14,277 nucleotides of DNA from Deinococcales bacterium (lineage in GTDB: Bacteria > Deinococcota > Deinococci > Deinococcales > JAAFIG01). The notes under the pieces were generated by a model. The model was not told the DNA's origin, did no database searches, and saw only the letters and a list, made by a program, of their open reading frames with translations. Of the stretch, positions 97-14,277 are shown piece by piece (the stretch's first letter is position 1; each line of letters opens with the position of its first letter). The stretch covers positions 1 to 14,277 of the forward strand of contig JAYWGM010000090.1 in the NCBI GenBank assembly GCA_043778225.1, written 5' to 3'. Made by a program: the position numbers and the translations under genes.

Positions 97-1783
97 CAAA
101 CTCGACATCATTACCGCAAACTATGGTAATTCCTCGAGTGTCCTCTTGGGCAACGGCAATGGTACATTCCTAGCCAAAGTGGATTACGCTACGGGTATAC
201 AACCTCAATCTGTGGCTGTAGCTGATGTCAATGGGGATGCCAAACCTGACATTATCACCGCAAATTACAATGGTAACTCCTCGAGTGTGCTGCTTGGCAA
301 TGGCAATGGCACTTTTCAAGCCAAAGTGGATTACACCACAGGTGCAGGCGCTAGTTCTGTGGCGATAGCGGATGTCAACGGCGATGCAAAACTCGACATC
401 ATTACCGCAAACTTTGGTGGTAATACCTCGAGTGTGCTGCTTAATAATGGCAATGGTACGTTCCAAACAGGAGTGGTTTACACCACGGGTACAAATCCTA
501 ATTCTGTGGCTATAGCTGATATGAATGGCGATGCTAAACTCGACATCATCACCGCAAACTCTGGGGCTAATACCTCGAGTGTCTTGTTTGGTAATGGCAA
601 TGGTACGTTCCAAGCCAAAATAGATTACACCACGGGTCTAAGTCCCCGTTCTGTAGCTGTAGCTGATATGAATGGCGATGCCAAACTTGACCTGATTACG
701 GCAAACTATTTTGGCAATTCCTCGAGTGTCTTGCTCGGTAATAATGCTTACGGTACATTCCAAGCCAAAACGGATTACACCACGGGTGCAAGTCCTATTT
801 TTGTGACCGTGGCGGATATAAATGGGGATGCAAAACTCGATATGATCACCGCGAACACCAGTGCTTTTTCCTCGAGTGTGCAGCTTGGTAATGGCAATGG
901 GACGTTCCAAGCCAAAACAGATTACCCGACGGGTTCAGGACCTTATTCTGTGGCGATAGCGGATGTCAACAGCGATGCCAAACTCGACCTGATTACCGCA
1001 AATGCCAATGATAATACCTCGAGTGTACTGCTTAACAACGGCAGTGGCGGTTTCCTAGCCAAAACAGATTACGCCACAGGTACACTTCCATTTTCTGTGG
1101 TGGTGGCTGACATGAATGGGGATACTAAACTCGACATCATTACCGCAAACAATGGCACTGGGGTTAATACCGTGAGCCTCCTTTTGGGCAATGGCAATGG
1201 TACGTTCCAAGCCAAAACGGATTTCACCACAGATGCCAATCCTTTTTCTGTGGCAGTGGCTGATGTCAACGGGGATGCCAAACTCGACATTATTACCGCA
1301 AACTTTAATGCCAATTCCTCGAGTGTGCTGCTTGGCAATGGTAATGGGACTTTTCAAGCCAAGACGGATTACGCCACAGGTGCAGGCGCTAGTTCTGTGG
1401 TTGTGGCGGATGTCAATGGAGATACTAAACTCGACATTATCACCACAAATTATTATGGTCATTCCTCGAGTGTGCTGCTTAATAATGGCAATGGTACGTT
1501 CCTAGCCAAAACAGATTACACCACAGGTACAAATCCTAATTCTGTTTCTGTAGCTGATATGAATGGAGATGCCAAACTCGACATCATCACCGCAAACTCT
1601 GGGGCTAATACCTCGAGTGTCTTGTTTGGTACTGGCACTGGTACGTTCCTAGCCAAAACAGATTACACCACGGGTTCGACTCCACTTTCCGTGGCTGTGG
1701 CTGATATGAATGATGATGCTAGACTCGACATCATCACTGCAAACAATCTTGGTAATTCCTCGAGTCTACTGCTGAACCGTTAG
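97..1783 (+). pseudogene. 3' part of an FG-GAP/VCBS repeat beta-propeller surface protein, disrupted by the IS
   Basis: There are 11 full and 1 partial ~49-aa repeats (ADxNGDxKLDIITAN...SVLLGNGNGTF) carrying DxNGD Ca-binding motifs. The first 22 aa of the listed ORF 32..1783 come from the IS antisense strand, and there is no signal peptide. Confidence 0.85.
98..1780 (+). repeat. Tandem ~147-bp FG-GAP coding repeats with a 7-unit (1038-bp) super-period
   Basis: Units 2/9, 3/10 and 4/11 share loop sequences (TGAGASSV, TGTNPNSV, SGANTSSVLFG). Positions 536-593 and 1574-1631 are identical over 58 bp. Confidence 0.95.
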
Positions 1784-1818
1784 CGCCAAACTCTAACTTA
1801 TCTCGAGTTAGAAATAGA

Positions 1819-1862
1819 TATAACGCTCGTATAACGCCAATATACGCCCTGCTTTTTATGCT
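1819..1862 (+). promoter_or_regulatory. Putative activator-dependent promoter: three phased direct repeats plus a -10 box
   Basis: TATAACGC (1819), TATAACGC (1830) and TATACGCC (1841) precede TATGCT at 1857-1862. The RBS AAGGAG is at 1882-1887. Confidence 0.5.
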
Positions 1863-1894
1863 ACCTCGAGAGACAAACCTCAAGGAGTTACGCC

Positions 1895-3940
1895 ATGTTA
1901 AAAAAATCAATGCTGCTTGTATTTTTAATCCTGATTGGAGCTTGTACAACACCACCGATTGTGCCACCACCCAAAGCAGAACCCCCCATTAAAGTTGTCG
2001 GTAGCCCCATCGAAATTGCCCTAACTGGGATTGGCGGCTCTAAACTTTCGGCTCGAGTTCGTCCGCAAACCCTTGACACAGAAGTGAGTAGCCGCATTAT
2101 TTTAGGCGATGCGATTGTCCGCTCGAGTACCGATATTGTGCCACTCGGACAGGCTCGCACTTCTGGACACCGGTATTTGCACGTGACATTACCAATCAGC
2201 CTTCTCGAGGGAACGTTTACTAACCTAACCTTTATGGCAATGAACGACCCAAAAAGCGGCAGCCTGAGCGCGGTTTCAGAACTAAGTCGTTACCCCGGCT
2301 TAGCTGCTTATACCCAATCCGAATTTGATGCACTTGCCGCCAGTATCGCACCTACCAGCCCGATCAGCCTCGAGCCTAGAAGCCAAAGCCCGACGCTGCT
2401 GGCTGGCGAAGAAGATGCGCTGCAAATTTACACTGAAAACGAAGTCTCGAGTTTAGGCAATGTTCTGCCTTATGGTTTTGTGGCGCACAATGGCACAAGC
2501 CGCACCATTACTAGCACAGGCACAATCACGATTGCCATGCGTGTACCGTTGCAGGCTTTAGCCAAAGATGACCCGTACACGATTAAACTGCGCTTTGGAA
2601 TCTATGAGGACAGCACCACGATCATGACCGAATCGCTAGAAGCCCAGTTACCAATCAACCAAGCGGCTTTTAAGGCGGTCAGAACTCGAGTCGGCGGGGA
2701 GTTGCGGGTCATGCCCGGTACAACCAAGTCCATATCAGCACCAATCTATTTGTACTCATCGCCTCGAGTTGCGCCAAGTCAAACAACGCTGACTATTTGT
2801 CAAGTTCGGACGGTTGGCACTGCGATTAGCCCAACAGCATATTTAGTCAATCGCATACCAACTGCGGTAGCCTTAAAGACTCAAGTGATTACCACGGGGC
2901 AAACCCTACCGCTCGAGACCACTATTTCTGATGCGGCTGGCGAGTATTACCTGCCCGCCCAAATAAGCCTGACCGACTCGAGCCTTGGTGGTATCCGAAG
3001 TCAGCATTTAACTGCTTTTGGTGCTGGGGCAACCACAGTTAGCACCAATGTTTGCGGTCTGACTGGTGTCAGTCACTTAAATGTTCTGACCGATATTATT
3101 CCGATTTCGGGTGGAGCATTGCATAGTCTGGCTTTACAATCCGATGATACTGTGGCAGCTTGGGGAAGTAATGGTTTAGGGCAAACAACCATACCAAGCG
3201 ATTTAACTGGTTACTCGGTTCAAGCAGTGGCTGGAGGTTCTTATCATAGTTTGGCATTACAAACCAATGGTGTAGTCAGGGCTTGGGGATATGGTGGTTT
3301 AGGGCAAACAACAATACCAAGTGGCTTGGTTGGTATTGTCGCCATAGAAACAGGCTTAAATCATAATTTAGCCTTAAACAGAACTGGTGGCGTGGTTGCG
3401 TGGGGGTTCAATAGTAACTCTCAAACCGATGTTCCTACCGATTTAACCAATGTCGCGGCAATAACAGGCGGGAATGGGTATAGTTTAGCCCTTAAATCCG
3501 ATGGTCGCCTTGTGGTTTGGGGATCAGAAAACCAATCTGGACAAACCGACATTCCAACTGGCTTAAATGATGTGATTGCGATTAGTTCGGGAGCGTTTCA
3601 TAACCTTGCTTTGCAACAAAACGGTACCGTCGTGGCTTGGGGAAGGAATGACGAGGGTCAGAGTACCGTACCGACCGACTTAACTGGGGTTATTGCGATA
3701 AGTGCAGGGAATTTTCACTCGATTGCCTTAAAAGCTGACGGCACAGTGGTGGCTTGGGGTAGCAATGATTTTGCTCAATTAACTGTTCCTACTGGCTTAA
3801 CGGGTGTTGTGGCAATTGCAGCAGGAGAGGTTCACAACCTTGCCTTAAAAGCCGATGGCAGCATTATCGCATGGGGCTACAGTTCATATGGTCAAACCAC
3901 CATTCCAGTTATTGCACCACTGACGTTCAAAATCCCGTAA
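1895..3940 (+). CDS. Surface lipoprotein: uncharacterised N-terminal domain + Ig-like linker + 7-bladed RCC1-like propeller
   Basis: Signal peptide II with lipobox LIGA-C17 and RBS AAGGAG. Seven ~39-aa repeats (aG..HsLAL..dGtVvaWG.N..GQ..vP) lie at the C-terminus. Confidence 0.9.
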   Translation: MLKKSMLLVFLILIGACTTPPIVPPPKAEPPIKVVGSPIEIALTGIGGSKLSARVRPQTLDTEVSSRIILGDAIVRSSTDIVPLGQARTSGHRYLHVTLPISLLEGTFTNLTFMAMNDPKSGSLSAVSELSRYPGLAAYTQSEFDALAASIAPTSPISLEPRSQSPTLLAGEEDALQIYTENEVSSLGNVLPYGFVAHNGTSRTITSTGTITIAMRVPLQALAKDDPYTIKLRFGIYEDSTTIMTESLEAQLPINQAAFKAVRTRVGGELRVMPGTTKSISAPIYLYSSPRVAPSQTTLTICQVRTVGTAISPTAYLVNRIPTAVALKTQVITTGQTLPLETTISDAAGEYYLPAQISLTDSSLGGIRSQHLTAFGAGATTVSTNVCGLTGVSHLNVLTDIIPISGGALHSLALQSDDTVAAWGSNGLGQTTIPSDLTGYSVQAVAGGSYHSLALQTNGVVRAWGYGGLGQTTIPSGLVGIVAIETGLNHNLALNRTGGVVAWGFNSNSQTDVPTDLTNVAAITGGNGYSLALKSDGRLVVWGSENQSGQTDIPTGLNDVIAISSGAFHNLALQQNGTVVAWGRNDEGQSTVPTDLTGVIAISAGNFHSIALKADGTVVAWGSNDFAQLTVPTGLTGVVAIAAGEVHNLALKADGSIIAWGYSSYGQTTIPVIAPLTFKIP

Positions 3941-3959
3941 TTCGAGCAAAGGAGCAACC

Positions 3960-6188
3960 ATGAAACAGAAAATACATTCCTTGATTGACCTTGTAAAACA
4001 GGTATGCGGTCATTCTGACTCGGAAAAAGCGCAATGCCTTACGCACTCCCCCCAGCGCGGAGCGCTGACCCCCTCGAGTGAGGGGGTTCAAGTACCAGAC
4101 CTTGAACTTAGCACCCCTCTTTTGAGGGGTCGAGCGGAGCGAGGGGGAGTGCGTAAGAGGTCACGTTCTTACACCATCCCTGTTCTGCTAGGCGTAGCAC
4201 TCGCCGCGTGCAATCAGCAAACCATTCCATCAGTCCCCAGCCTAAAACCAGTCGGGGCAGCCTTTACCCTAACTTTTGATGGGCTTGGTACACCCAATTT
4301 TAATGCCAGCCTCTCGAGCAGTATCAGCCCCCAAGCCCTGACTGACCAACAAGCAACTGTTAAACCAATTCGGGTGGTGGCTCGGGGCAGCATGGATTAC
4401 ATTCCAGAAGGGCAGCCGCGTACCAGTGGCTTTCGTTATGTCTATGCGGTGCTATCGGTCAACAGCACCGCTATTCTCGAGAATGTTAGTTTTCTTGGGG
4501 TGCGAAACAGCAGCAGTTCAATTGCAGATACGGCAATAAGTACGGCGATTCGTGCGCCCGGTGGGGTTGCCTTTAGCAGCACCGAACTCAGGACACTGGC
4601 TTTACGTGTTAAACCCGCCCAAGCCAGCACCTATAACTCGGTCACAAAAAAAATAGTGCCATTGCCAAATACCGAAGATACGGTGCAGTACCTGCCCGAA
4701 AGCGCTTTGGATTACGTGCCAGATGGCATGGTTGGTTTACTGCCGTATGGTTTTACTGTCCTGAACAGCACGGGCGGGCGCACCCTCGAGACCACCACCA
4801 ACGCCAACCGCATGATTGTTGGTATGAAAGTGCCTTTGGCAGCCGACCCCGTAAACGACCCATATGCCTTTGCTTTTAGTGCCGTGCCAGTAACGGATTC
4901 TGAAACTCGAGTGACCCAAACTTTAGAAGCCCAAAGCGCCAAAGGCAATGCAGCCGTGGTGGCTCGAGCCGCCGCGCTTGGCAGCAGTGCCAGTATTACG
5001 GCGTTACCATCGGCATTTAACAGCCCAGCCAGCAGCAATACCGTCAATGCTCTGTGCAGTCTTCGCACGGCGGGTAGTGCCACCAACCCAAGCGCCTATT
5101 TGATTAACCGCAGTTTTACGGCTGCTAACCTCGAGCCAGTGGTTCGGGTCATCAGCAAAGGACAAATTCTGCCAACCAGTCTTTGGGTGAACACCGACGG
5201 CGGATATTATTTGCCCGCCCAGAGCATCTCCAATAATACTACCAAGGTACGAGTCGTAGGAAACCGCCTAGAGGCTTTAGAACTCGGTCAAGGCACAATC
5301 ACCGCCACGGCTTGCGGCTACACCATCAACAGTGACTTCAAAGTTCTCAATCCGATTGTCACGGTGGATGCTGGGTATTGGTACAGCCTTGCGATCAAAT
5401 CAGATAGCACAGTCGCGGCTTGGGGCAGCAATGTGGCTGGCGAAACAATTGTACCAAACGATTTAAGCGGTGTGATTTCGGTCAGCGCAGGAAATTTTCA
5501 TAATTTAGCCCTAAAAAGTGATGGTACGGTCGCGGCTTGGGGCAGCAATGGTGCTGGTCAAACCGATGTGCCAACGGGTTTAAGCGATGTGATTGCAGTT
5601 GCCGCAGGGGGAAACTCGAGCCTTGCACTTAAAAACGATGGCACGGTGCTTGGCTGGGGTTGCAATTGCTATGGTCAAGTCAGCATCCCACCCGATTTAA
5701 CCGATGTGGTTGCCATCAGTGTTGGCGGGCTTCATAGTTTAGCCCTGAAAAGTAATGGCACAGTGACTGCATGGGGCGATAATTCTGCTGGACAATTAAA
5801 CATCCCCAGTGGTGTGGCTAACGTTGTGGCAATCAGTGCAGGCTCGGCGCATAACCTAGTCCTTAAAGATGACGGCAGTGTGGTGCAGTGGGGCAACAAT
5901 GGCACAGATTTTACCATGCCAAACACGGTCAGTCAGATTGGTGCGATTGGCACAGGTTCAAACTTTAACCTGACCATCACCTCGAGCCTTGGTGTGATTG
6001 TATGGGGTGATAACACATGGAATCAACTGGATTTGCCGAGCAATTTAGCCAACATGGTGGCTGTGGCTGGCGGCGACCATCATGGACTGGCTCTGAAATC
6101 CGACGGCAGCCTTGTGGTATGGGGAACAAACAGCTTTGGTCAAACCGATGTGCCGGACATCAGCCCATTAACTTTTAAGCTCCCGTAA
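3960..6188 (+). CDS. Paralogous surface lipoprotein with RCC1-like propeller; N-region extended by an in-frame palindromic insert
   Basis: RBS AAAGGAG precedes ATG 3960 and the lipobox is LAA-C84. It shares motifs with the upstream gene (P.GQ.RTSG.RY, LPYGF, M.VPL...DPY, YYLPAQ, C-terminal I.PLTFK.P) and has seven RCC1-like repeats. An alternative in-frame GTG start lies at 4149. Confidence 0.88.
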   Translation: MKQKIHSLIDLVKQVCGHSDSEKAQCLTHSPQRGALTPSSEGVQVPDLELSTPLLRGRAERGGVRKRSRSYTIPVLLGVALAACNQQTIPSVPSLKPVGAAFTLTFDGLGTPNFNASLSSSISPQALTDQQATVKPIRVVARGSMDYIPEGQPRTSGFRYVYAVLSVNSTAILENVSFLGVRNSSSSIADTAISTAIRAPGGVAFSSTELRTLALRVKPAQASTYNSVTKKIVPLPNTEDTVQYLPESALDYVPDGMVGLLPYGFTVLNSTGGRTLETTTNANRMIVGMKVPLAADPVNDPYAFAFSAVPVTDSETRVTQTLEAQSAKGNAAVVARAAALGSSASITALPSAFNSPASSNTVNALCSLRTAGSATNPSAYLINRSFTAANLEPVVRVISKGQILPTSLWVNTDGGYYLPAQSISNNTTKVRVVGNRLEALELGQGTITATACGYTINSDFKVLNPIVTVDAGYWYSLAIKSDSTVAAWGSNVAGETIVPNDLSGVISVSAGNFHNLALKSDGTVAAWGSNGAGQTDVPTGLSDVIAVAAGGNSSLALKNDGTVLGWGCNCYGQVSIPPDLTDVVAISVGGLHSLALKSNGTVTAWGDNSAGQLNIPSGVANVVAISAGSAHNLVLKDDGSVVQWGNNGTDFTMPNTVSQIGAIGTGSNFNLTITSSLGVIVWGDNTWNQLDLPSNLANMVAVAGGDHHGLALKSDGSLVVWGTNSFGQTDVPDISPLTFKLP
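4038..4157. mobile_element. 120-bp palindromic MITE/REP-like element inserted in frame
   Basis: A perfect 15-bp terminal inverted repeat (CTTACGCACTCCCCC 4038-4052 / GGGGGAGTGCGTAAG 4143-4157) encloses four internal hairpins (4053-4067, 4068-4087, 4086-4107, 4113-4130). The element is GC-rich and absent from the paralog. Confidence 0.7.
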
Positions 6189-6225
6189 CTCGAGCCTCTA
6201 TTTCACTTTATCAAAGGAGAAGATC

Positions 6226-7515
6226 ATGAACATCAAAACAATTATCGTTGCGTTTGCGCTCACCACAATCTCGAGCCTCGCCCATGCCCAAGTTGTTCCC
6301 ACACCAGCAGGGCTAACCTTAACTCGAGCCGACGAAGGCAAAATACTGATTGTCCAAAATGGTCAGTTGGTGCTGGTCAGTCCAGAATCTGTTCCGAGCT
6401 TACGCGGTGCAAGGGGTGAAACGGGTTCTCAGGGTGCGGACGGCGCTCGAGGTGCGACGGGCGCTCAAGGTCCAAAAGGTGACACGGGCTTACAAGGTAT
6501 CCAAGGTGCGACGGGCGCTCAGGGTCTAAAAGGTGACACGGGCATACAAGGTATCCAAGGTGCAAAAGGTGATACGGGCGCAGCAGGAGCAGTTGGCGCT
6601 CGAGGGGCGGATGGCGCGGTTGGTCTAACGGGCGCGAAAGGTGACACGGGAGCAGTTGGCGCGACAGGAGCAGTTGGTCCAAAAGGTGATACAGGTTCTC
6701 GAGGAGCAGATGGAGCAGTTGGCGCAAAAGGTGAGACTGGTCTCCAAGGGATTCAGGGTGCAAAAGGCGAAATTGGCGCAAAAGGTGAGACCGGAGTTAA
6801 GGGCGAAAAAGGTGAGACGGGGATTCAAGGCGTAAAAGGCGATACAGGTCTCCAAGGGATTCAAGGCGTAAAAGGTGACACTGGCTTGCAAGGGATTCAA
6901 GGCGTAAAAGGTGACACTGGCTTGCAAGGGATTCAAGGCGTAAAAGGTGATATGGGAATTCAAGGCGTAAAAGGCGACACTGGTGCAAAAGGCGAGACGG
7001 GTTTACAAGGGATTCAAGGCGTAAAAGGTGATACGGGTGTTCAGGGTACAAAAGGTGATACGGGTCTCATTGGACTCACTGGTGCAAAGGGCGAGACGGG
7101 TTTACAAGGGATTCAGGGCGCAAAAGGTGATACGGGTTCTCGAGGAGCAGATGGCGCAGTTGGCGCAAAAGGCGAGACTGGTCTCCAAGGGATTCAAGGC
7201 GTAAAAGGTGAGACTGGCACAACTGGTTTACAAGGATTGAGAGGCGATACTGGAGAAACTGGCTCACAAGGCATCCAAGGTGTGAAAGGTGACACTGGCT
7301 TACAAGGCATCCAAGGTCTCACTGGCTTGCAGGGTATTCAAGGCGTAAAAGGTGATACTGGGGCAACTGGCGAAAAGGGCGATACTGGTGCTAAGGGCGA
7401 GACAGGTAACACGGGTCCAGCCGGTCCAGCCGGTCCAGCCGGAATTCCTTTGGGCAGCTTACCTAAACCACTTGACGAAACTATCTTTTGGCGTTTTGGC
7501 TTTTTTGAGCGCTAA
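6226..7515 (+). CDS. Secreted collagen-like (Gly-X-Y) protein
   Basis: RBS AAAGGAG and a Sec signal ending AHA|Q are followed by a ~40-aa N-terminal segment, 116 uninterrupted GXY triplets and a 21-aa aromatic-rich tail. Confidence 0.92.
   Translation: MNIKTIIVAFALTTISSLAHAQVVPTPAGLTLTRADEGKILIVQNGQLVLVSPESVPSLRGARGETGSQGADGARGATGAQGPKGDTGLQGIQGATGAQGLKGDTGIQGIQGAKGDTGAAGAVGARGADGAVGLTGAKGDTGAVGATGAVGPKGDTGSRGADGAVGAKGETGLQGIQGAKGEIGAKGETGVKGEKGETGIQGVKGDTGLQGIQGVKGDTGLQGIQGVKGDTGLQGIQGVKGDMGIQGVKGDTGAKGETGLQGIQGVKGDTGVQGTKGDTGLIGLTGAKGETGLQGIQGAKGDTGSRGADGAVGAKGETGLQGIQGVKGETGTTGLQGLRGDTGETGSQGIQGVKGDTGLQGIQGLTGLQGIQGVKGDTGATGEKGDTGAKGETGNTGPAGPAGPAGIPLGSLPKPLDETIFWRFGFFER
6406..7449 (+). 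repeat. Collagen GXY coding tract with 36-bp tandem units
   Basis: The tract is 1044 nt, or 116 triplets. Near-identical 36-bp units (GIQGVKGDTGLQ) lie around 6820-6960, and a longer duplication links ~6682-6756 with ~7123-7197. Confidence 0.95.
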
Positions 7516-7640
7516 TCAAATAGCTTGAGATAACAAACTCGAGGAATCAGACTTGGGTCAGTTGACACCATAAACTTGCATAGAACCAGTGTACGAGGAT
7601 TTAGGTTATTCGGATAACTGCAATTTATGGTGTTCTGTCG

Positions 7641-7652
7641 TACACTTATACC
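7641..7652 (+). promoter_or_regulatory. -10 box for leaderless transcription of the Rrf2 gene
   Basis: TACACT-N6-ATG with no Shine-Dalgarno sequence, an arrangement typical of Deinococcota. Confidence 0.65.
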
Positions 7653-8081: not shown

Positions 8082-8096
8082 CTGACATCTTCTTGG

Positions 8097-8150
8097 TTGG
8101 CTGCGCGACATCTTATTTTCTAAAATGTGTAATAATTTTTGTTACGCATT
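8097..8150 (+). promoter_or_regulatory. azoR promoter with overlapping Rrf2-type operator
   Basis: TTGGCT(8097)-N18-TAAAAT(8121). The inverted repeat AATGTGTAATAA-ttt-TTGTTACGCATT (8124-8150, 10/12 match) has the core TGTAA-N9-TTAC. Confidence 0.7.
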
Positions 8151-8184
8151 AAGAGCGATGGCTCAAGTGCAAAAGGAGAACACC

Positions 8185-8817
8185 ATGGCAAAAGTTTTAT
8201 TTATTAAAGGACACCCCGGTACAAGCCAAACCAGCATCTCGGTGCAAATGCTTGAGCGTTTCCAAGCTGATTACAAAGCCAAAAATCCAAATGACAGCAT
8301 TGAAGTGCTGGATTTGTACAACGATAACATCCCACTGATTGACGCAGAAGTGATGAGCGCTTGGGGCAAATTTCAAAATGGTAAAGCCAGCGAAGTGACC
8401 GCTTCTGAGGGCGCAAAAGTTGCCCGAATGGGCGAACTCGCCGATCAATTTTTGGCTGCTGATACGGTGGTTTTTGCTGCACCAATGTGGAATTTTGGCT
8501 ATCCACCGATGGTTAAAGCCTATATTGATGCTGCTGTGGTTGCCGCAGGAAAAACCTTTAAGTACACCGAAAACGGACCAGTCGGCTTAGTCCCAAACAA
8601 AAAAGCCGTGATTCTCGAGGCAAGTGGCAGCCACTTTAGCAATACACCTGCCGAAAGCCACACCCACGCCAGCAATCACCTCAAAGGTATTCTTGGATTT
8701 ATTGGTATGAAAGACATCGAATTTATCAGTGCTGAAGGCGTAAGCCAATTTCCCGACAAGAAAAGTACCATCATCAGTGCTGCCCTTGAAAAAGTCTCGA
8801 GTCTTGCAGCCGCTTAA
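8185..8817 (+). CDS. azoR: FMN-dependent NADH:quinone oxidoreductase / azoreductase
   Basis: MAKVLFIKGHP, PMWNF, KAYID and GKTFKYTENGPVGL are AzoR/AcpD signatures. RBS AAAGGAG supports a start at 8185 rather than 8125. Confidence 0.95.
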   Translation: MAKVLFIKGHPGTSQTSISVQMLERFQADYKAKNPNDSIEVLDLYNDNIPLIDAEVMSAWGKFQNGKASEVTASEGAKVARMGELADQFLAADTVVFAAPMWNFGYPPMVKAYIDAAVVAAGKTFKYTENGPVGLVPNKKAVILEASGSHFSNTPAESHTHASNHLKGILGFIGMKDIEFISAEGVSQFPDKKSTIISAALEKVSSLAAA

Positions 8818-8831
8818 ATTAAAAGTCTAGC

Positions 8832-8860
8832 AACCGTGCCTCAATCAGGCACGGTTTTTT
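8832..8860 (+). terminator. Intrinsic terminator after azoR
   Basis: AACCGTGCCT-caatc-AGGCACGGTT followed by a T run. Confidence 0.9.
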
Positions 8861-8877
8861 CATGCCATAATTGGGCG

Positions 8878-9657
8878 ATGCAAGTTTTAATTGGCACTGG
8901 CGGATTTTCTAACGAAGACTGGGTTGGGCTTTTTTACCCGCACACCTTAAAAAAAACCCAGTGGCTCGAGTTTTATGCTCAAACCTTTAATGCTGTCGAA
9001 ATCAACAGTACCTTTTACGCTGTGCCAGCCCAAAAGCAAATGGCAAACATGATTACTCGTACCCAAGGAATGCTGACTTTCTGTGCCAAACTGCATAAAA
9101 GTTTTACCCACGACTTTACTGCCACCGCCCAAAGTGCCGCCGAGTTTTGTTACACGATGCAGCCGATGCTCGAGTCAGGAAAACTTGGGGCGTTGTTAGC
9201 CCAGTTTCCATTTGCTTTTAAGAACAGCCTCGAGTCGCGCCTTTACCTCGAGCAATTAGCAATTTGGTTTGCTGGATTTCCTTTAGCAATTGAATTTCGC
9301 CATGCCAGTTGGGATAAACGAGCCGTTTATCAGTTTCTTGCCGATTTGGGCTTACAGCCCGTCAGTCTTGATTTGCCAAATTTATCAGGTTTACCAGCCC
9401 CAGTTTTGCGTCACGATACAATGGTTTATCTGCGCTTGCATGGTCGTAACAGCGCCAACTGGTTTGATGGCAAAGATGCTGCCGAGCGCCATGATTACCT
9501 GTACACACAAGCCGAACTCGAGCCATGGGCGGATGCTTTACAAAAAATTCGTGTGCCGCAGGCTTTTGTCTTTTTTGAAAACACCACCCGTGGACAAGGA
9601 CTCGAGAATGCACGGATGTTTAGCGGGCTACTCGAGCGCCACACGAGGCACGAATAA
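8878..9657 (+). CDS. DUF72 (YecE/YunF-like) TIM-barrel protein
   Basis: Motifs IGT.GFS..DW.G.FYP, VEINSTFY, LAQFP..F, AIEFRH.SW, YLRLHGRN and YLY...EL are present. The likely start is leaderless (CATAAT-N6-ATG 8878). Confidence 0.93.
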   Translation: MQVLIGTGGFSNEDWVGLFYPHTLKKTQWLEFYAQTFNAVEINSTFYAVPAQKQMANMITRTQGMLTFCAKLHKSFTHDFTATAQSAAEFCYTMQPMLESGKLGALLAQFPFAFKNSLESRLYLEQLAIWFAGFPLAIEFRHASWDKRAVYQFLADLGLQPVSLDLPNLSGLPAPVLRHDTMVYLRLHGRNSANWFDGKDAAERHDYLYTQAELEPWADALQKIRVPQAFVFFENTTRGQGLENARMFSGLLERHTRHE

Positions 9658-10645
9658 TCAGTTTGGTCTGGCACGATATTGATTTTTGGCTGATGCTTTC
9701 GCCGCGCATCAGTTGCTCGAGTAATTGAATTGCTTTTTGGGCGTGTTCAACTGCACTGACACGAATGGTTGTCAGGGCTGGCGATAAATAGGCTGCGGTT
9801 GGTATGTCGTCGTAACCAACAATCGCTATATCTTTGGGGATATGCAGTCCAGCTTGCTGAATGGCAGCCATTGCACCCATTGCCACAGTATCGTTGCCCG
9901 CAAAGACAGCCGTTGGTTTTATTTTAAGCAGCTTTTGCATCGCCATAAATCCACTTTCGGCACTAAAATTACCAATTGCCACCAAGTTCTTTTGGTAGGG
10001 CAGTTGGGCTTGCTCAAGGGCGAGACGGTAGCCAAGCAGGCGTTTTTGGGTCGCAAAATAATGTTCTGGCGAGAAAGTTAAATGGGCAATTTTACCATGT
10101 CCAAGGCTAATCAGGTGCTTGGTGGCAAGGCTGGAAGCCAGAACTGCATCGGTTGCTACATTGTGCAGTTCTGGCTCAAAGGCAGCACCAATCAGCACCA
10201 CAGGAAAATTCTTTTGAATTAAAGTTGGCAGTTGCGAGTCATCGGAACGCGGATTGACCACCACCAAACCATCAATATGATGACCGCGCACCAATTGTAA
10301 GTAAGCATCGGGGGCAGTGACATCTTGAACGGTCTCGAGCAGCAGCTTATAGCCAGCTTTTTGGCTGTGCTGACAAAGGCTGTACAAAAGCTGTGGAATA
10401 AAAGCATCCACCGCCAAATGCTGTGCCTGAGAAATCACCACCCCAATGGTGCGGGTTTGACCACTGACCAACATTTTGGCGGCAGCATTGGGTACATAGC
10501 CCAGTGCTTCGGCAGCCGCCAAAACTTTAATTCGAGTGCTTTGTGGGATATGACTGTTTGCAACGTTGTTTAAGACAAACGAAACGGTGGTTCTCGAGAC
10601 ACCAGCCTTGGTGGCAACTTCTTGACTGGTGACTCGCTTTTTCAT
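9620..10645 (-). CDS. LacI-family transcriptional repressor
   Basis: HTH VT..EVA.KAGVSRTTVSFVLN, hinge LGYVPN, and sugar-binding motifs IP.DIAIVGYDD and PALTTI. It overlaps the melA stop as ATGA (10642-10645). Confidence 0.96.
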   Translation of the reverse strand: MKKRVTSQEVATKAGVSRTTVSFVLNNVANSHIPQSTRIKVLAAAEALGYVPNAAAKMLVSGQTRTIGVVISQAQHLAVDAFIPQLLYSLCQHSQKAGYKLLLETVQDVTAPDAYLQLVRGHHIDGLVVVNPRSDDSQLPTLIQKNFPVVLIGAAFEPELHNVATDAVLASSLATKHLISLGHGKIAHLTFSPEHYFATQKRLLGYRLALEQAQLPYQKNLVAIGNFSAESGFMAMQKLLKIKPTAVFAGNDTVAMGAMAAIQQAGLHIPKDIAIVGYDDIPTAAYLSPALTTIRVSAVEHAQKAIQLLEQLMRGESISQKSISCQTKLIIRASCGARVAR

Positions 10646-11994
10646 GCCCGCAAGGCTTCGGGGATGCTGTTGCCGTGGGCTGTGAGCAATTCATCCACAA
10701 GGTCGTGAATCTGCTGCAAATCCAATTCGGCAGCCGTGTGTGGGTCGAGCATCGCAGCATGGTAAATATGCGCTCGATTGCCGGTCAGCACCGCTTCGGC
10801 GGTCAGTTCTTGGACATTGACATTGGTTCGCATCATGGCGGCTAAGTGCGGCGGCAGCTTACCAATTTTGGTTGGCTGAATTCCATTTTTGTCCACCAAG
10901 CACGGCACTTCGACACAGCAATCTTCGGGCAGGTTATCTATTAAGCCTTTATTCGGCACATTGCCATAAATCACCCGTGGTTGTCCAGTTTCTTGGCTAT
11001 GAATAATCAGGCTACCGTATTCAACACTGCGTTTGACCTCGAGTTGTTCGGCTGGGTTCTCGAGCCGCAAGCGCATGGTTTCCCATTTGGCATTATTCAG
11101 TTCACAACGCCGAATGTACTCTTCGATGGGGATGTTAAATTGCTCGAGTAAGTCTGGGCGACCCTTTTTAATAAACCATGGCACATACTCGCTAAAATGC
11201 TCCGAGGATTCGGTCACGCTGTAGCCAAAGTGCCGAAAAACCTCATAGCGCACATGGTCAGTTAAACCCCAAGGCATATCTGCCGAAACACGGTGGGTAA
11301 ATTTTCCTTTTGCCACAAATTCTTTAACTTTTGGGTATAAATCTTCAATCGTACCGTTTTGATGGTGCTGCTCGAGTTTTAAGTAAAACGCCATGTGGTT
11401 AATGCCCGCCACCAAGTATTGGACTTCTTCGGGCGGAATCCCTAAATCATTTGCCAGTTCATGGGCGGTGTGCGGCACGCTGTGGCATAAGCCAACCAAT
11501 TTAATCGGGCTGGCTTTAGCCAGCGCAATACAGTTGATTGCCATTGGATTGACATAATTTAAGTGCAACACATTTGGGCAAACCCGTTCCATCAGTCGGG
11601 TGTACTCGAGCAGCACCGGAATGGTTCGCAGCCCACGCATAATCCCACCAATCCCAAGCGTATCCGCAATGGTCTGTTGCAAACCGTATTTTTTTGGAAT
11701 TTCAAAGTCAATCACCGTGCTGGGTTTATAACCACCAACTTGAATCATGCTAATCGCATAATCCGCACCCTCGAGCGCAACTTCGGCATCGGTGGTTGCC
11801 ACAATGCTGGGTTTAACCCCAAGGGCTTGGGCAACTTTATGTGCCACAATTTCCGAGGTTTTTAAGCGCTCAGGATTAATGTCAAACAGCATAATGCGTG
11901 AATGCTCGAGTTCTGGGTAAGACAAAATATCGCCGAGTAAATTCTTGGCAAAAACCGTACTGCCAGCGCCAATAAGTGCAATTTTTGGGTTCAT
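10642..11994 (-). CDS. melA: NAD+/Mn2+-dependent alpha-galactosidase, glycoside hydrolase family 4
   Basis: Motifs KIALIGAGSTVF, QTIADTLGIGG, NYVNP, GLCHSV, AGINHM, TESSEHFSEYVPWF and AAMLDPHTAAEL are present. The RBS is AGGAG. Confidence 0.93.
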   Translation of the reverse strand: MNPKIALIGAGSTVFAKNLLGDILSYPELEHSRIMLFDINPERLKTSEIVAHKVAQALGVKPSIVATTDAEVALEGADYAISMIQVGGYKPSTVIDFEIPKKYGLQQTIADTLGIGGIMRGLRTIPVLLEYTRLMERVCPNVLHLNYVNPMAINCIALAKASPIKLVGLCHSVPHTAHELANDLGIPPEEVQYLVAGINHMAFYLKLEQHHQNGTIEDLYPKVKEFVAKGKFTHRVSADMPWGLTDHVRYEVFRHFGYSVTESSEHFSEYVPWFIKKGRPDLLEQFNIPIEEYIRRCELNNAKWETMRLRLENPAEQLEVKRSVEYGSLIIHSQETGQPRVIYGNVPNKGLIDNLPEDCCVEVPCLVDKNGIQPTKIGKLPPHLAAMMRTNVNVQELTAEAVLTGNRAHIYHAAMLDPHTAAELDLQQIHDLVDELLTAHGNSIPEALRA

Positions 11995-12006
11995 GGGTAA
12001 CTCCTG

Positions 12007-12022
12007 ACTAACACGTGTTAGT
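12007..12022. promoter_or_regulatory. LacI-family operator for melA-lacI
   Basis: A perfect 16-bp palindrome, ACTAACACGTGTTAGT, with a central CG lies between the -10 box and the RBS of melA. Confidence 0.85.
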
Positions 12023-12023
12023 T

Positions 12024-12053
12024 AAATTACTGTAACCAAACCCGTTCTGTCAA
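12024..12053 (-). promoter_or_regulatory. Sigma70-type promoter of melA-lacI
   Basis: The minus strand reads TTGACA (12053-12048)-N18-TAATTT (12029-12024). Confidence 0.65.
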
Positions 12054-12089
12054 GCCTCGACTGACGGCGCATCCAAGCCTCGAGTGACG
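12051..12089 (+). repeat. 16-bp direct repeat pair between divergent promoters
   Basis: CAAGCCTCGACTGACG (12051-12066) and CAAGCCTCGAGTGACG (12074-12089) differ at 1 position and have a 23-bp period. Confidence 0.8.
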
Positions 12090-12090
12090 C

Positions 12091-12120
12091 TTGAAAATCC
12101 TGCCCGCTAAATGCTAGACT
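12091..12120 (+). promoter_or_regulatory. rpmE promoter
   Basis: TTGAAA-N18-TAGACT with an extended -10 TG at 12112-12113. Confidence 0.75.
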
Positions 12121-12125
12121 CTACA

Positions 12126-12234
12126 GCCGCGTCCTCGAGCGAAATGCGAGGCGGTACTTCCAAAATGGTTGTGCTTGAACTCCCTCACGGTCGGAATCGT
12201 GAGGCTGACGCTAGAAATAGCGGTTGGAGTCTAT
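12126..12234 (+). promoter_or_regulatory. Structured 5' leader of rpmE (candidate autoregulatory r-leader)
   Basis: Three hairpins lie at 12126-12155, 12183-12204 (9-bp stem) and 12209-12222 (CGCTA-GAAA-TAGCG), directly before the SD GGAG. Confidence 0.55.
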
Positions 12235-12456
12235 ATGAAAAAAGATTTACACCCAAAGATGGTTCCTTGTAAAATTATTTACAACGGCGAAGTCGTGATG
12301 GAAACATTTAGTGTCAAGCCAGAAATCCATGTGGATGTCTGGAGTGGTGTTCACCCACACTGGACAGGTCAGCAACGCTTTTTAGACACCGAAGGTCGGG
12401 TCGAGAAATTTACCAAGCGCTTTGGTACAAGTTACCGCACCAAAAAAGACGCATAG
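12235..12456 (+). CDS. rpmE: 50S ribosomal protein bL31 (zinc-free, Deinococcus-like)
   Basis: MKKDLHPK...VDVWSGVHPHWTGQQRFLDTEGRVEKF.KRFG with only one Cys. SD GGAG at 12226-12229 supports a start at 12235. Confidence 0.97.
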   Translation: MKKDLHPKMVPCKIIYNGEVVMETFSVKPEIHVDVWSGVHPHWTGQQRFLDTEGRVEKFTKRFGTSYRTKKDA

Positions 12457-12466
12457 ACTAAAATCT

Positions 12467-12494
12467 AAAAGGGGCTGCCGTGGCAGCCCCTTTT
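12467..12494. terminator. Bidirectional intrinsic terminator
   Basis: AAAA-GGGGCTGC-cgtg-GCAGCCCC-TTTT lies between the convergent rpmE and aminotransferase genes. Confidence 0.93.
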
Positions 12495-12495
12495 C

Positions 12496-13641
12496 TTATG
12501 CCCGTACCCCAAGTTGCTGGTCAAAAGCAGTAATCAAACCTTTAACGCCAAGCACTTTCTCAAGGGCATCAAAAAAACGATGATAGATGGCTGGTCGGGC
12601 GGATTCGCCCATCAGACCTAAGCGCCAAATTTTACCCGCCGTTTCGCCTAAACCGCCAGTCACAATCACACCATGTTCACGTAAGCCAGTCCGAACTGGA
12701 ACATCGTGAATAAATTCTGGCAAACGCACCGCCAAAACCGTCGGTAAGCGCTCGCTAGGGCGTTCCACAAAGGCGCTAAAGCCAATTGTCTCGAGGGCAG
12801 CCAGTGCCGCCGCACCAACTTCTGTGACCCGCTTTTCTCGAGCCTCGAGTCCTTCGGAAAGTGCCGCTGTCAGGGCAGCATCCAAGGCATAATGCAGTTG
12901 GACTGGCACAGTGTGGTGGTACTCACGGCGATTCCAATAGGCTTGTAAACCTTCAAGGTCGGCATACCAAAGTGGAACTTTTGTTTTTCGATTCTCGACT
13001 GCCTGTATGGCGCTGCTCGAGAACGCCACCGGGGCAACCCCCGGAGGCGCACTGAGGCATTTTTGGCTGCCCGTGTAGGCATAGTCCACGCCCCATTGGC
13101 GCATTTGGTAGGGCATCATCCCCGCCGTGGTCACGGCATCTACGGTCACTAAGCAACCATAGGACTTAGCCAGTTTGGCAATCTCGATGGCTGGATTCAG
13201 TACGCCTGTACTGGTTTCGCCGTGAACCACTGCCACCAGCTTAAAAGTATCGGCTTCGAGGGCTGCCCTCACATCCTCGAGTTGAATGGCTTGACCAATT
13301 GGCGACTTAACAATCGTGACTCGAGCGCCTAAGCGTTCACACATTTCTGCCATCCGATAGCCAAAACTGCCATTGGCGCAAATCAGCACTTTTTCTTGTG
13401 GCTCGAGCAAATTGGTAAAACCAGCTTCCATGCCAAGGCTGCCCGTTCCAGCCAACAAACAAGTAAATGCGGTATCGTCTGTGCCATACAGGGTTTTGAG
13501 GTTTTTTTGGACTCGATCATTGAGCGCAAAAACTTCGGGATCCATATGTCCGCGCATTGGAAAAGACAGGGCGCGTTGGGCGTGTGGCTCGATTGGCGTT
13601 GGACCAGGGGTTAAAAGAACTTGCTCGAGTGGATTGCTCAT
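12496..13641 (-). CDS. Class-V PLP aminotransferase (alanine-glyoxylate / serine-pyruvate family)
   Basis: Motifs [23 protein letters not shown], the PLP-lysine motif [15 protein letters not shown] and WRLGLMG are present. RBS GAAAGGA supports a start at 13641 (MSNPLEQ). Confidence 0.93.
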
Positions 13642-13680
13642 AGTTTTCCTTTCTTGGCACAAACCTGCTCGAGACGACAT

Positions 13681-13768
13681 AAAAAAACTTCTGGTCGCTC
13701 GAGTGATTCGCACAAGACAAAGCCCCGAGTGGGGTTGTCTTGTGCGGTCAAGCTCGTGCGGTCAGAAG
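13681..13768 (-). terminator. Long leader hairpin plus U7 (candidate attenuator terminator)
   Basis: An inner perfect 12-bp stem (13709-13720/13735-13746) with a CCCC/GGGG cap is closed by outer CTTCTG/CAGAAG pairing. U7 follows immediately on the minus strand (A7 at 13681-13687). Confidence 0.65.
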
Positions 13769-13771
13769 CAT
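13748..13771 (-). CDS. Putative leader peptide MLLTARA
   Basis: ATG CTT CTG ACC GCA CGA GCT TGA begins 8 nt after TACAAT and forms the 5' arm of the leader hairpin. Confidence 0.45.
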
Positions 13772-13779
13772 CTATGGCT

Positions 13780-13810
13780 ATTGTAAGCACAAAAAGGGTC
13801 TTTTCGTCAA
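13780..13810 (-). promoter_or_regulatory. Promoter of the aminotransferase leader
   Basis: The minus strand reads TTGACG (13810-13805)-N19-TACAAT (13785-13780). The spacer is long. Confidence 0.55.
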
Positions 13811-13972
13811 GGGCGGAGGCTTGAGGTGTCGTAAAAAAAGTCTAACCTTGGGGCGTGTAGGAACTGACCAAGAACAATCGGGATGTATAAGTAAGCTACA
13901 AATATGAATTTTTTACCTGACTGGAATACAATTACGCAACAATCCAAACTCCACGAAAAGAAAGGAGGTTAT

Positions 13973-14277
13973 ATGCTGATACCCGCACTTCTCGCCGCCG
14001 TCCTGACCGCTTGCCCCCAAGCTCCAATTCAAGAACAACAAACCGAAGCTCGAGGTTTAACAACCCAAAAAGATATTATGCTACACGGAATTATCGCTGG
14101 GAGTTCATTTCAAAGTAACCAAGGTTTTACCTTACAAAATGGCTCGAGTATCCATGCCAACACTGGCTTAATCCTGAATTCGAGGAACATAGTTTTGAAT
14201 GGTGGTCAAGTCTCGAGTACCAGTGCTGCCAGTTGCTCGGATAATTCTGGACAAGGTTTTTGCTTAAACGGTAAACC
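13973..14277 (+). CDS. Lipoprotein, N-terminal part (runs off the window; not in the ORF track)
   Basis: SD AAAGGAGG precedes MLIPALLAAVLTA-C (lipobox), then PQAPIQEQQTEARGLTTQKDIMLHGIIAG..., open to the window end. An alternative in-frame ATG lies at 13904. Confidence 0.85.
   Translation, partial: MLIPALLAAVLTACPQAPIQEQQTEARGLTTQKDIMLHGIIAGSSFQSNQGFTLQNGSSIHANTGLILNSRNIVLNGGQVSSTSAASCSDNSGQGFCLNGK

Follow-up and report, generated by a model that had tools for sequence, protein, structure and literature searches.

CTCGAG as a hyper-abundant word maintained throughout the chromosome in an uncultured family of Deinococcales

The hexamer CTCGAG is a hyper-abundant, lineage-specific word in an uncultured family of Deinococcales, whose individual sites are preserved by a weak, pervasive bias which acts on the DNA, and on neither protein nor RNA, and which favours the whole hexamer over its one-letter neighbours. 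This bias recodes most of the Leu-Glu, x-Ser-Ser/Arg and x-Arg-x opportunities and raises the Leu-Glu dipeptide itself, lacks the strength to reach into the 16S rRNA gene, and gives diminishing returns near a further copy, at distances of up to about 50-100 bp. We are highly confident of this description taken as a whole. The function of the word is a more tentative matter, our best guess, to which a probability of roughly 0.35 is assigned, being that it acts as a self-recognition word for DNA uptake and/or homologous recombination. A literature search retrieved no paper on this CTCGAG enrichment.

The local sample of the word is the window, i.e. the whole stretch of DNA that was analysed (14,277 nt), for which an earlier note had given about 75 copies against about 3 expected. 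This hyper-abundance was borne out: 76 exact copies lie at 133..14217, a density of 5.3 (5.32) per kb, and 200 dinucleotide-preserving shuffles of the window gave a mean of 1.42 (sd 1.14, maximum 5), with none reaching 76. The copies are not all independent, because 11 of them follow the 147-bp period of one tandem FG-GAP array. The features concerned are the following:

133..14217, no strand: set of 76 CTCGAG copies, the local sample of the genome-wide word (exact count against shuffles)
97..1773, forward strand: FG-GAP tandem array of 147-bp units (period 147, 11.4 copies, 74% matches; Pfam FG-GAP_3 in 11 stretches)
1802..1870, no strand: pair of copies, at 1802 and 1865, in the interval separating the FG-GAP gene from the RCC1 gene (site positions)
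6189, 7538, 12079 and 12134, no strand: the other copies outside the listed ORFs (site positions)
8836..9657, forward strand: DUF72 gene with 7 copies, all CTC-GAG, 8.5 per kb (Pfam; frame count)
10642..11994, reverse strand: GH4 (melA-like) gene with 7 copies, all CTC-GAG, Leu-Glu (Pfam; frame count)
12496..13713, reverse strand: class-V aminotransferase gene with 10 copies, distributed 5/4/1 over the three frames (Pfam; frame count)

In the array, 11 FG-GAP units hold the word at the identical place and in the single frame xxC-TCG-AG (Ser-Ser), from site 133 to site 1759, a constant position despite a match of only 74% between units. Throughout the window, the frame is CTC-GAG for 29 copies, xCT-CGA-G for 16 and xxC-TCG-AG for 26, these 71 gene assignments being due to one site shared by two overlapping ORFs, and six copies fall outside the listed ORFs. 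The occurrence in all three frames and between genes, as the earlier note had described it, is correct, and the genes which it had named as carriers (melA, azoR and an aminotransferase) agree with the Pfam assignments, namely GH4, an azoR-like Flavodoxin_2 gene also present in the window, and the class-V aminotransferase.

The excess extends over the whole source genome (G000; 4,029,277 bp in 107 contigs, the longest of 154 kb, 89% complete), where CTCGAG is the top hexamer, with 24,877 copies against 931 from base composition (26.7 times), that is, 6.2 per kb or approximately one copy per 160 bases. Confinement to the window's own contig, or loss of the enrichment under a codon or dicodon shuffle, had been put forward as outcomes that would speak against the proposal, and neither was observed. 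In fact, the 98 contigs longer than 5 kb all carry between 4.0 and 10.6 copies per kb (median 6.27), and the coding sequences contain 22,145 copies, where ten synonymous-codon shuffles averaged 2,341, a 9.5-fold excess which holds in each of the three frames (8-14 fold). A dicodon-Markov expectation was also exceeded in the two frames spanning three codons (4,467 vs 2,710 and 4,598 vs 2,223). Coding DNA and non-coding DNA are equally dense (6.18 vs 6.09 per kb), which, together with the enrichment of all frames, upholds the claim that protein constraint is insufficient as an explanation; in short intergenic DNA the count was 1,061 against about 28 after shuffling, a 38-fold excess. The 16S rRNA gene contains no CTCGAG at all, and the low-GC, foreign-looking stretches of the genome are also devoid of it.

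The preference for the complete word can be appreciated from its neighbours, since all the one-letter variants total 13,793 against 24,877 motifs, which, each motif having 18 such variants, amounts by hand arithmetic to a roughly 30-fold bias. Moreover, 93% of the xCT-CGA and of the TCG-AGx dicodons are completed to CTCGAG, and 69.2% of the 18,913 Leu-Glu dipeptides are written CTC-GAG. The Leu-Glu dipeptide has an observed-to-expected ratio (O/E) of 2.32, the highest of all dipeptides; in the sampled loci, which are small samples, the ratio was 2.52 for the family, 3.49 for the sister-family genome G253, 1.23 for G197, 0.90 for Deinococcus-like and 0.98 for Thermus-like genomes, so that this proteome effect tracks the abundance of the word.

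As regards its distribution, the source genome does belong to Deinococcota, as had been supposed, and the trait was present in all 19 genomes of the family, at a density independent of GC over the range of 46 to 64%. Among the 251 Deinococcota genomes surveyed, the Deinococcus-like ones avoid the word, G253 carries 7.0 copies per kb and G197, its sister in the RpoB tree, 0.3 per kb, with an O/E of 0.8 at the same GC (about 51%); G196, placed among word-avoiding genomes, carries 3.6 per kb. Individual positions are also retained. Of the aligned motif positions, 147 out of 235 (63%) were kept in family orthologues, against 8,669 out of 40,346 (21%) for other hexamers, a count which covers the window genes only (31 alignments, 28 related loci, the relatives not being independent of each other) and which supports the suspicion that something maintains the sites; in the GH4 gene, 4 to 8 window copies per aligned stretch were kept.

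Neighbouring sites disfavour one another up to a distance of about 50-100 bp, an effect seen at constant protein sequence. The motif encodes a fraction of 0.33 of the Leu-Glu pairs when another copy is at 6-12 bp, and of 0.78 when it is at 97-192 bp, and the remaining two frames show the same dependence on distance. Gaps of up to 30 bp number 2,382 against 4,220 expected.

For three decades cyanobacteria have been known to carry highly iterated palindromes (HIPs), on whose mechanism there is no agreement, and a periodic distribution over 10-90 kb has been reported for HIP1. In the excerpts of the reports cited, such words are GC-rich palindromes 15- to 300-fold over-represented genome-wide (PMC5861425), at about 1 per kb in Elhai's text (PMC4390886), the sites of HIP1 are conserved, with selection being inferred (PMC5861425), and HIP1 accompanies orphan GATC- and CGATCG-specific methylases (PMC4390886, PMC5861425). 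As far as these excerpts describe them, HIP1 (GCGATCGC) and the alternate HIPs resemble CTCGAG in being GC-rich palindromes tens of times over-represented in all frames and intergenically, and HIP1 shares with it the conservation of position between genomes, the scarcity in foreign-looking DNA and a patchy phyletic distribution with exceptions. Measured against that definition, the excess is 26.7 times, is independent of codons and peptides and has 147/235 positions kept. Unlike HIP1, CTCGAG has 6 letters rather than 8, belongs to a phylum other than cyanobacteria and, at about 6 per kb, is about six times denser than the HIPs of the excerpted text; moreover, no cognate methylase was found for it, seven classes having been searched in 19 genomes which are mostly incomplete MAGs. 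The idea of a HIP1-like system is thus supported in its descriptive part (iterated-palindrome behaviour and site retention), and its methylase link is not supported.

The uptake words of Neisseriaceae (DUS) and Pasteurellaceae (USS) are of 9-12 bp, non-palindromic or usually asymmetric, and present at about 1 per kb, and their uptake bias has been experimentally shown. Like them, CTCGAG is a lineage-specific word under weak drive or selection, evenly spread over the genome in all frames and distorting peptides; unlike them, it is a 6-bp palindrome at 6.2 per kb and lacks a flanking consensus. Restriction targets are normally avoided, not enriched. The word is identical to that recognized by XhoI/PaeR7I, with the cognate endonuclease and methylase not found in the family sample.

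According to the self-recognition account, a hypothetical protein would read double-stranded DNA as a symmetric dimer recognizing CTCGAG, which would label DNA as being of the cell's own type in the course of uptake and/or homologous recombination, a role established for the uptake words of Neisseria and Haemophilus and now proposed for HIP1; DNA rich in copies would enter the cell or recombine with a higher frequency, and the copies would in this way spread and persist. Such a reader protein would be easily gained and lost, which would account for the patchy distribution of the word in the phylum. Deinococcus and Thermus are naturally transformable, and the lack of a CTCGAG excess in Thermus-like and Deinococcus-like genomes counts against the uptake reading, as do the length and density of CTCGAG, which fall outside those of known uptake words, and the absence of any obvious reason why the uptake of kilobase-sized fragments should need a copy every 160 bp. 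Biased repair could also yield the positional conservation and the interference. In excerpts of the literature, HIP1 has been proposed as an uptake sequence (PMC13756078) and increases transformation, an effect that depends on methylation (10.1101/2024.09.10.611283), yet no family-wide methylase was found here, which is a further point against the uptake reading. As a separate observation, one competence gene present in the source genome is dprA. In a wider formulation, a self-recognition or genome-maintenance system without a dedicated methyltransferase would write and keep one hexamer chromosome-wide, having been repeatedly switched on and off in Deinococcota; we consider this possible, though a little less likely still. 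If true, the contrast between G253 and G197 at the same GC, together with the isolated G196, would make the responsible genes findable by presence-absence comparison, and HIP1, a puzzle of 30 years' standing, would gain its first mechanistic lead.

Methylation-linked biased mismatch repair, which is Elhai's model for HIPs, would have a methyltransferase mark CTCGAG, or its TCGA core, and a repair system settle mismatches towards the marked form, accumulating copies as a ratchet; it is rather unlikely. In E. coli, Dcm/Vsr very-short-patch repair raises CCWGG, a comparable repair bias enriching a methylase target word. Here, Vsr (PF03852) had no matches in the source genome, the enrichment is far larger and the deamination variant is not depleted: CTTGAG/CTCAAG, expected to be scarce under T:G repair, is in fact the commonest one-letter variant (2,762). 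The depletion of variants is weakest at the outer letters (TTCGAG 2,696, ATCGAG 1,871 and GTCGAG 1,617, vs CACGAG 531 and CTAGAG 290), resembling the outer-letter bias reported for HIP1, which favours the repair model. So does, in the excerpted text of PMC4390886, the presence of a methylase for the palindrome whenever an alternate HIP is abundant in cyanobacteria, and also the existence of orphan CTCGAG methylases elsewhere, as in Nocardia, where the motif clusters beside dnaA (PMC4752239, in excerpt). That case is similar in that CTCGAG is used outside restriction, and different in that the Nocardia motif, as excerpted, clusters locally at the replication origin region, as opposed to the even genome-wide coverage seen here.

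The source genome is itself rich in methylases (6 C5, 8 N6_Mtase, 6 N6_N4 and 4 D12 matches). Nevertheless, no class out of seven was common to the 19 family genomes: C5 methylases were found in 18 (none in G010, 91% complete), N6_N4 in 17 (none in the one-contig genome G026), D12 in 18, as unrelated groups, and the TaqI_C type in just 6. When the methylases of G000, G006, G010 and G026 were compared all against all, no orthologue group proved common to the four, and the best match across genera (40%) was one between type I HsdM proteins. Methylase specificity is unreadable from sequence and most family genomes are incomplete MAGs, so a non-orthologous or missed enzyme may exist. The XhoI-family endonuclease (PF04555) was absent from the source genome and from four other family genomes of the 251-genome sample, in which only four genomes, one with a frameshifted copy, carry such genes; these are adjoined by a PF01555 methylase and by a PaeR7I-like methylase in which Eco57I and TaqI_C domains are combined, and no orthologue of either methylase is present in the 19 genomes of the family, G253 or G196. 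The association with an XhoI/PaeR7I- or TaqI-like methyltransferase which the earlier note had proposed, and the co-occurrence it had suggested as a check, found no support. A type II methylase of the source genome missed by Pfam (PADLOC PDLC03310, E 1e-196) shows that such a census can miss classes and speaks for the repair model. It is carried by 10 of the 19 members of the family and by G253, and by none of 11 other genomes searched, G197 among them. Against this, it is missing from G007, G009, G010 and G011 (91-94% complete) and is half of a mobile restriction-modification pair; the source-genome methylase and its partner endonuclease are 60-69% and 70-77% identical, respectively, to proteobacterial and cyanobacterial homologues, whereas the methylase shares only 42% identity with its counterparts in other genera of the family.

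A binding site for an abundant nucleoid or chromosome-organizing protein, with selection holding a set site density chromosome-wide, is doubtful. The equal density in coding and non-coding DNA and the interference at fixed protein sequence are in its favour, as is a spacing which, islands excluded, is of greater evenness than chance would give (gaps above 300 bp, 3,195 vs 3,826 expected), and such a role has been proposed for HIP1 in the excerpted PMC5861425. On the other side, the gaps have an overall coefficient of variation of 1.0, the pair distances revealed no helical (~10.5 bp) or other short periodicity except the 3-bp codon period, there is no candidate protein, and the sister genome G197 does well without the word.

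Spread by a tiny mobile unit or by 6-bp in-frame insertions, instead of base substitution, would agree with the 2.3 times over-representation of Leu-Glu and with an enrichment of gaps divisible by three; it is nonetheless very improbable, as the positions not kept mostly show substitutions in the other genome (a gap in 9/235) and no flanking consensus was found beyond the hexamer. Finally, a passive by-product or relic of composition or of codon or codon-pair preference (CTC and GAG being favoured in GC-rich relatives) could draw on the 1-3.8 copies per kb of those relatives, on a Thermus-like sample matching its synonymous shuffle (20 vs 19.5) and on a maximal-order Markov O/E of just 1.16 in the source genome, which is expected because its 5-mers fall almost wholly inside the motif, but it is refuted by the synonymous-shuffle and intergenic excesses, by the minor use of CTC (9.1% of the codons for Leu) and GAG (22.6% of those for Glu) outside the motif, by the independence of GC and by the G197 contrast.

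CTCGAG offers a case in another phylum, independent of the cyanobacterial HIPs, of a word which visibly reshapes codon choice and dipeptide content. Close relatives with and without it at the same GC provide the contrast required to find the gene and to test the methylation, uptake and nucleoid models. In these genomes the word distinguishes native from imported DNA and distorts gene-finding and codon statistics, and its density makes XhoI digestion or cloning impractical for this DNA.

The palindrome CTCGAG occurs in 76 exact copies in the window, spanning positions 133-14217, against a mean of 1.42 and a maximum of 5 in 200 dinucleotide-preserving shuffles, in agreement with the HIP1-like excess that an earlier note had claimed from the sequence alone. 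The gene names proposed there are also supported by Pfam, which identifies a GH4 melA-like gene, a Flavodoxin_2 azoR-like gene and a class-V aminotransferase; the 'IS fragment' it mentioned could not be located in the window. Eleven of the 76 copies are carried by a single FG-GAP array of tandem 147-bp units (11.4 copies, 74% matches) and are thus not independent, while the remaining 65 reach all genes except one small gene. Regarding the reading frames, 29 motifs are read as CTC-GAG, 16 as xCT-CGA-G and 26 as xxC-TCG-AG, the 71 gene assignments resulting from one site being shared between two overlapping ORFs, and 6 lie outside the listed ORFs. Three parts of the window present further features:

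97-1773: FG-GAP repeat protein, with the motif at the identical Ser-Ser position in 11 of about 12 units that are only 74% alike
1895-7515: two paralogous RCC1-repeat lipoproteins, then a 429-residue collagen-like (Gly-X-Y) protein, in whose gene the motif is mostly in the xCT-CGA-G reading
13819-14277: N-terminal part of a lipoprotein gene and its upstream region (about 450 bases), recurring at 84-87% identity elsewhere in the genome, on contigs C7 and C81

The Ser-Ser-Ser-Val stretch of each FG-GAP unit may itself have been shaped by CTCGAG.

The excess extends to the whole genome containing the window (G000; 4,029,277 bp in 107 contigs, GC 48.7%), where 24,877 copies are found against 931 expected by base composition (26.7x), CTCGAG being the most over-represented hexamer and ranks 2-9 being taken by its own 5-of-6 overlaps. 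A maximal-order Markov model gives a ratio of just 1.16, which is no argument against the excess, since that null is built from CTCGA and TCGAG, words lying almost wholly inside the motif. The density in the 98 contigs longer than 5 kb ranges from 4.0 to 10.6 per kb (median 6.27), and 749 windows of 5 kb hold 31.0 copies on average, the poorest being low-GC stretches. Moreover, 68% of all TCGA in this genome is within CTCGAG, and no flank consensus was found around the sites. With crude gene calls (3,347 non-overlapping long ORFs, 88.5% of the genome), the density is 6.18 per kb within ORFs and 6.09 outside. Shuffling synonymous codons within each gene (n=10) left 2,215-2,494 copies (mean 2,341) of the 22,145 observed; by frame, 1,629, 381 and 330 were obtained against 13,080, 4,467 and 4,598 observed. 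In the two three-codon frames, the observed 4,467 and 4,598 also exceed dicodon-Markov expectations of 2,710 and 2,223, which are themselves inflated by the motif. In addition, intergenic stretches of up to 300 bp contain 1,061 copies, of which shuffling leaves about 28. Given this excess over shuffles and this spread, the enrichment neither vanishes under codon and dicodon nulls nor is confined to one contig, the two outcomes that the earlier note had named as speaking against it.

Named records put the lineage among uncultured Deinococcales MAGs, and its family comprises 19 genomes in five genera in the database. Whole-genome counts for 13 family genomes, G000 among them, give 4.3-6.8 CTCGAG per kb, and 17 family loci of GC 0.456-0.635 hold 4.1-10.2, compared with 1.1-3.8 in 12 Thermaceae-type loci. 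In a census of 251 Deinococcota genomes, densities were about 0.6-1.6 per kb in a Thermus-like genus, about 1.4-3.5 in other Thermaceae genera and 0.3-2.6 in a further family (f2), and in the sister family the most populous genus, a Deinococcus-like one with 92 genomes, has just 26-1,010 copies per genome. Two exceptions were found in that sister family, namely G253 (24,536 copies in 3.5 Mb, 7.0 per kb) and G196 (13,562 in 3.8 Mb, 3.6 per kb). By contrast with G253, sampled DNA of G197, of the same genus and GC (about 0.51), holds no more than chance would give, with 4 copies in 20 kb (O/E 0.8) and 4 in the sampled CDS against 4.2 after shuffling. Also in sampled DNA, the excess over the synonymous shuffle is about 3-4 fold in G196, several Thermaceae and f2 genomes, and absent in the Thermus-like sample (20 against 19.5). 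The same pattern is present within a single core gene: rpoB carries 8-12 copies in six family genomes (0.4-2.1 after shuffling), 10 in G253 (0.6), 7 in G196 (1.8), 1 in G197 (1.0) and 0-2 in Deinococcus-like genomes. Bin contamination as the source of the G253 motifs was ruled out, since its rpoB contig itself holds 5.2 per kb. A maximum-likelihood RpoB tree of 27 rows, obtained by a quick search, recovers the family as monophyletic (SH-aLRT 100) with the Deinococcus family as its sister (98), joins G253 and G197 as a sister pair (100) and places G196 among word-avoiding genomes. This patchy distribution means that the trait has been gained or lost several times, and the bias can appear or disappear between sister lineages. 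As a separate observation, G197 (2.3 Mb, 5 contigs) contains three 16S rRNA genes (L311, L314, L315) that are mutually just 89-94% identical, two of them with far lower Rfam model scores.

The motif also marks codon usage and protein composition. In G000, 13,080 of the 18,913 Leu-Glu dipeptides (69.2%) are spelled CTC-GAG, while outside the motif context the share of CTC among Leu codons is 9.1% and that of GAG among Glu codons 22.6%. No dipeptide is more over-represented than Leu-Glu (O/E 2.32), and Ser-Ser is at 1.58. Across related DNA, in small samples (between 7 and 164 kb of coding sequence for each group), the Leu-Glu excess correlates with CTCGAG density: family loci have 2.52, G253 3.49, G196 1.68 and Meiothermus-type loci 1.43, compared with 1.23 in G197, 1.17 in f2, 0.98 in Thermus-like and 0.90 in Deinococcus-like DNA.

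As regards the nature of the bias, it is directed to the complete hexamer. One-letter variants are not enriched in G000 and amount to 13,793 sites in total against 24,877 motifs which, by our own arithmetic with 18 variant words per motif, means a roughly 30-fold preference for the complete word. The commonest variants are transitions (TTCGAG 2,696, CCCGAG 2,051, CTTGAG 2,762) and the rarest inner transversions (CTAGAG 290, CACGAG 531). The force per site is weak. In line with this, both copies of the 16S rRNA gene of G026, a one-contig family genome, have zero CTCGAG in 1,505 bases, while their 3-kb flanks hold 14 and 15; this genome was used because a search of G000 with primer patterns found no rRNA. 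Site retention was measured by aligning the window with blastn to 28 loci from 17 further family genomes (31 alignments, each 500 bp or longer), relatives which are not independent and which represent this window's genes only: CTCGAG was kept at 147 of 235 aligned positions, compared with 8,669 of 40,346 for other hexamers and, in alignments of at least 74% identity, at 116 of 160 against 24.8% of controls. Since only 9 of the 235 positions fell in gaps, the motif is lost and gained by substitution, and its spread via 6-bp insertion was rejected.

Inter-motif gaps in G000 have a coefficient of variation of 1.0 and a shape unlike the geometric. Short gaps are scarce (239 of up to 10 bp against 1,495 expected; 2,382 of up to 30 bp against 4,220), as are those above 300 bp (3,195 against 3,826), while 19 gaps above 1,500 bp, against 2.2 expected, form islands. 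The sole period is the 3-bp codon period, and helical phasing was discarded, no helical period being found. With the protein sequence held fixed, Leu-Glu is spelled CTC-GAG more often the farther away the nearest other copy lies, the fraction going from 0.33 at 6-12 bp to 0.56 (13-24), 0.68 (25-48), 0.75 (49-96) and 0.78 (97-192), with parallel increases in the other two frames (0.17 to 0.56 and 0.29 to 0.71). Neighbouring sites therefore interfere, which argues against a purely independent per-site drive, since this would predict a flat line. Altogether, a DNA-level bias for the complete hexamer is observed that is weak per site and saturating, with diminishing returns at short range.

The earlier note had proposed a link with an XhoI/PaeR7I- or TaqI-like methyltransferase, which the methylases found in the family do not support. 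G000 has 6 C5, 8 N6_Mtase, 6 N6_N4, 8 Eco57I-type, 2 TaqI_C and 4 D12 methylase matches, and neither Vsr nor an XhoI-family endonuclease was found in it. Within the family, C5 is present in 18 of 19 genomes (none in G010, which is 91% complete, and one in G026), N6_N4 in 17 (none in G026) and TaqI_C in just 6. The D12 (Dam-like) matches, in 18 of 19 genomes, were considered as a near-universal methylase and rejected, as they belong to unrelated groups, the two recurring ones being absent from G000 and most of its genus. When each methylase ORF detected in G000, G006, G010 and G026 was compared with all the others, no shared orthologue group appeared, and the best cross-genus pair was a type I HsdM with 40% identity. 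XhoI-family endonuclease genes occur in 4 of the 251 Deinococcota genomes, one of them frameshifted, and have as neighbours a PF01555 methylase with an SPPY motif and a PaeR7I-like enzyme of 583 residues that combines Eco57I and TaqI_C domains. In G000, the 19 family genomes, G253 and G196, these XhoI-linked methylases find no more than motif-level similarity, the closest match in the family, G253 and G196 reaching 27%, in one genome. The four bearing genomes themselves hold 1,424-6,713 CTCGAG sites, and the gene in one of them (G104, L273:4688-5226) is broken by stops.

A motif scan of all G000 ORFs revealed one type II methylase unseen by Pfam (503 residues, PADLOC PDLC03310, E 1e-196), with an endonuclease upstream (PDLC03454, NCBIfam NF052465), which shows that a census relying on Pfam does not capture every methylase. 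No other methylase is shared as widely as this one, which is present in 10 of 19 family genomes and G253 and in none of 11 others, G197 and G196 included. The G000 copy is 60-69% identical to proteobacterial and cyanobacterial homologues (its partner endonuclease, 70-77%) and only 42% to copies of other family genera; the enzyme is mobile. It is decayed at the syntenic locus in two genomes, its endonuclease is frameshifted in G026, and it is missing from four genomes 91-94% complete. No PDB relative was found by sequence, nor an informative name, and it is a weak candidate for the CTCGAG enzyme. The location of restriction-modification pairs was also noted. In the window's genus, one pair lies at the same locus between alpha/beta hydrolase and amidohydrolase genes (L299-L302, L308, L309) in G000, G001, G005 and G006, its endonuclease possibly interrupted in the last, with short remnants in G003 and G004. 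A pair also lies near dprA in both G000, where a 277-residue ORF and a D12 methylase are located about 0.5 kb downstream (L064:1219-4829, contig C89), and G026, where the Pfam-invisible methylase with its frameshifted endonuclease directly adjoins dprA (L305:1366-4355).

Three explanations have been weighed, none of which is demonstrated. We tentatively put first, with a probability of about 35%, that CTCGAG would serve as a self-recognition word for uptake or recombination. This ranking is due to recent work which ties HIP1 to natural transformation (10.1101/2024.09.10.611283, PMC13756078), and to four likenesses to uptake sequences, namely an effect on protein composition, an even distribution, lineage specificity and a lack of copies in imported DNA. 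Methylation-linked repair seems unlikely, though it comes second: a model combining a methylase with repair fits cyanobacterial data (PMC4390886), but here its central component is missing and the depletion of neighbour words that it predicts is not seen. A nucleoid-protein site is the least probable of the three, and we regard it as rather improbable.

A highly iterated palindrome is a known kind of feature; what is new here is the phylum, the word length, the density and the fact that a cognate methylase is apparently lacking. The present work adds a phylum-wide census with a sister-pair contrast, a completed survey of methylases that takes in the Pfam-invisible class and the enzymes linked to XhoI, the interference test at fixed protein sequence and the motif-free 16S gene. 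A full-text literature search found no report of CTCGAG abundance in Deinococcota. A 2026 preprint, in the part available, describes methylated CTCGAG and TCGA as common to one host-phage group of hot-spring genomes, without naming the phylum. When viral contigs were scanned for stretches with three motifs in about 70 bp, at least 126 were obtained; among the matches listed, the motif-rich viral loci longer than 3 kb were GC-rich, most also with the reversed word GAGCTC, and none resembled the family.

Finally, next to this single very abundant word, G000 avoids palindromes to an extreme degree, 34 of the 64 six-letter ones having a composition O/E below 0.1 (GGCGCC 3 copies, GGGCCC 1, AGGCCT 1, GACGTC 1, GAGCTC 24). 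The other NTCGAN palindromes are rare too (TTCGAA 34, GTCGAC 49, ATCGAT 224), and GAGCTC is likewise scarce in G253 and in the majority of the family genomes.
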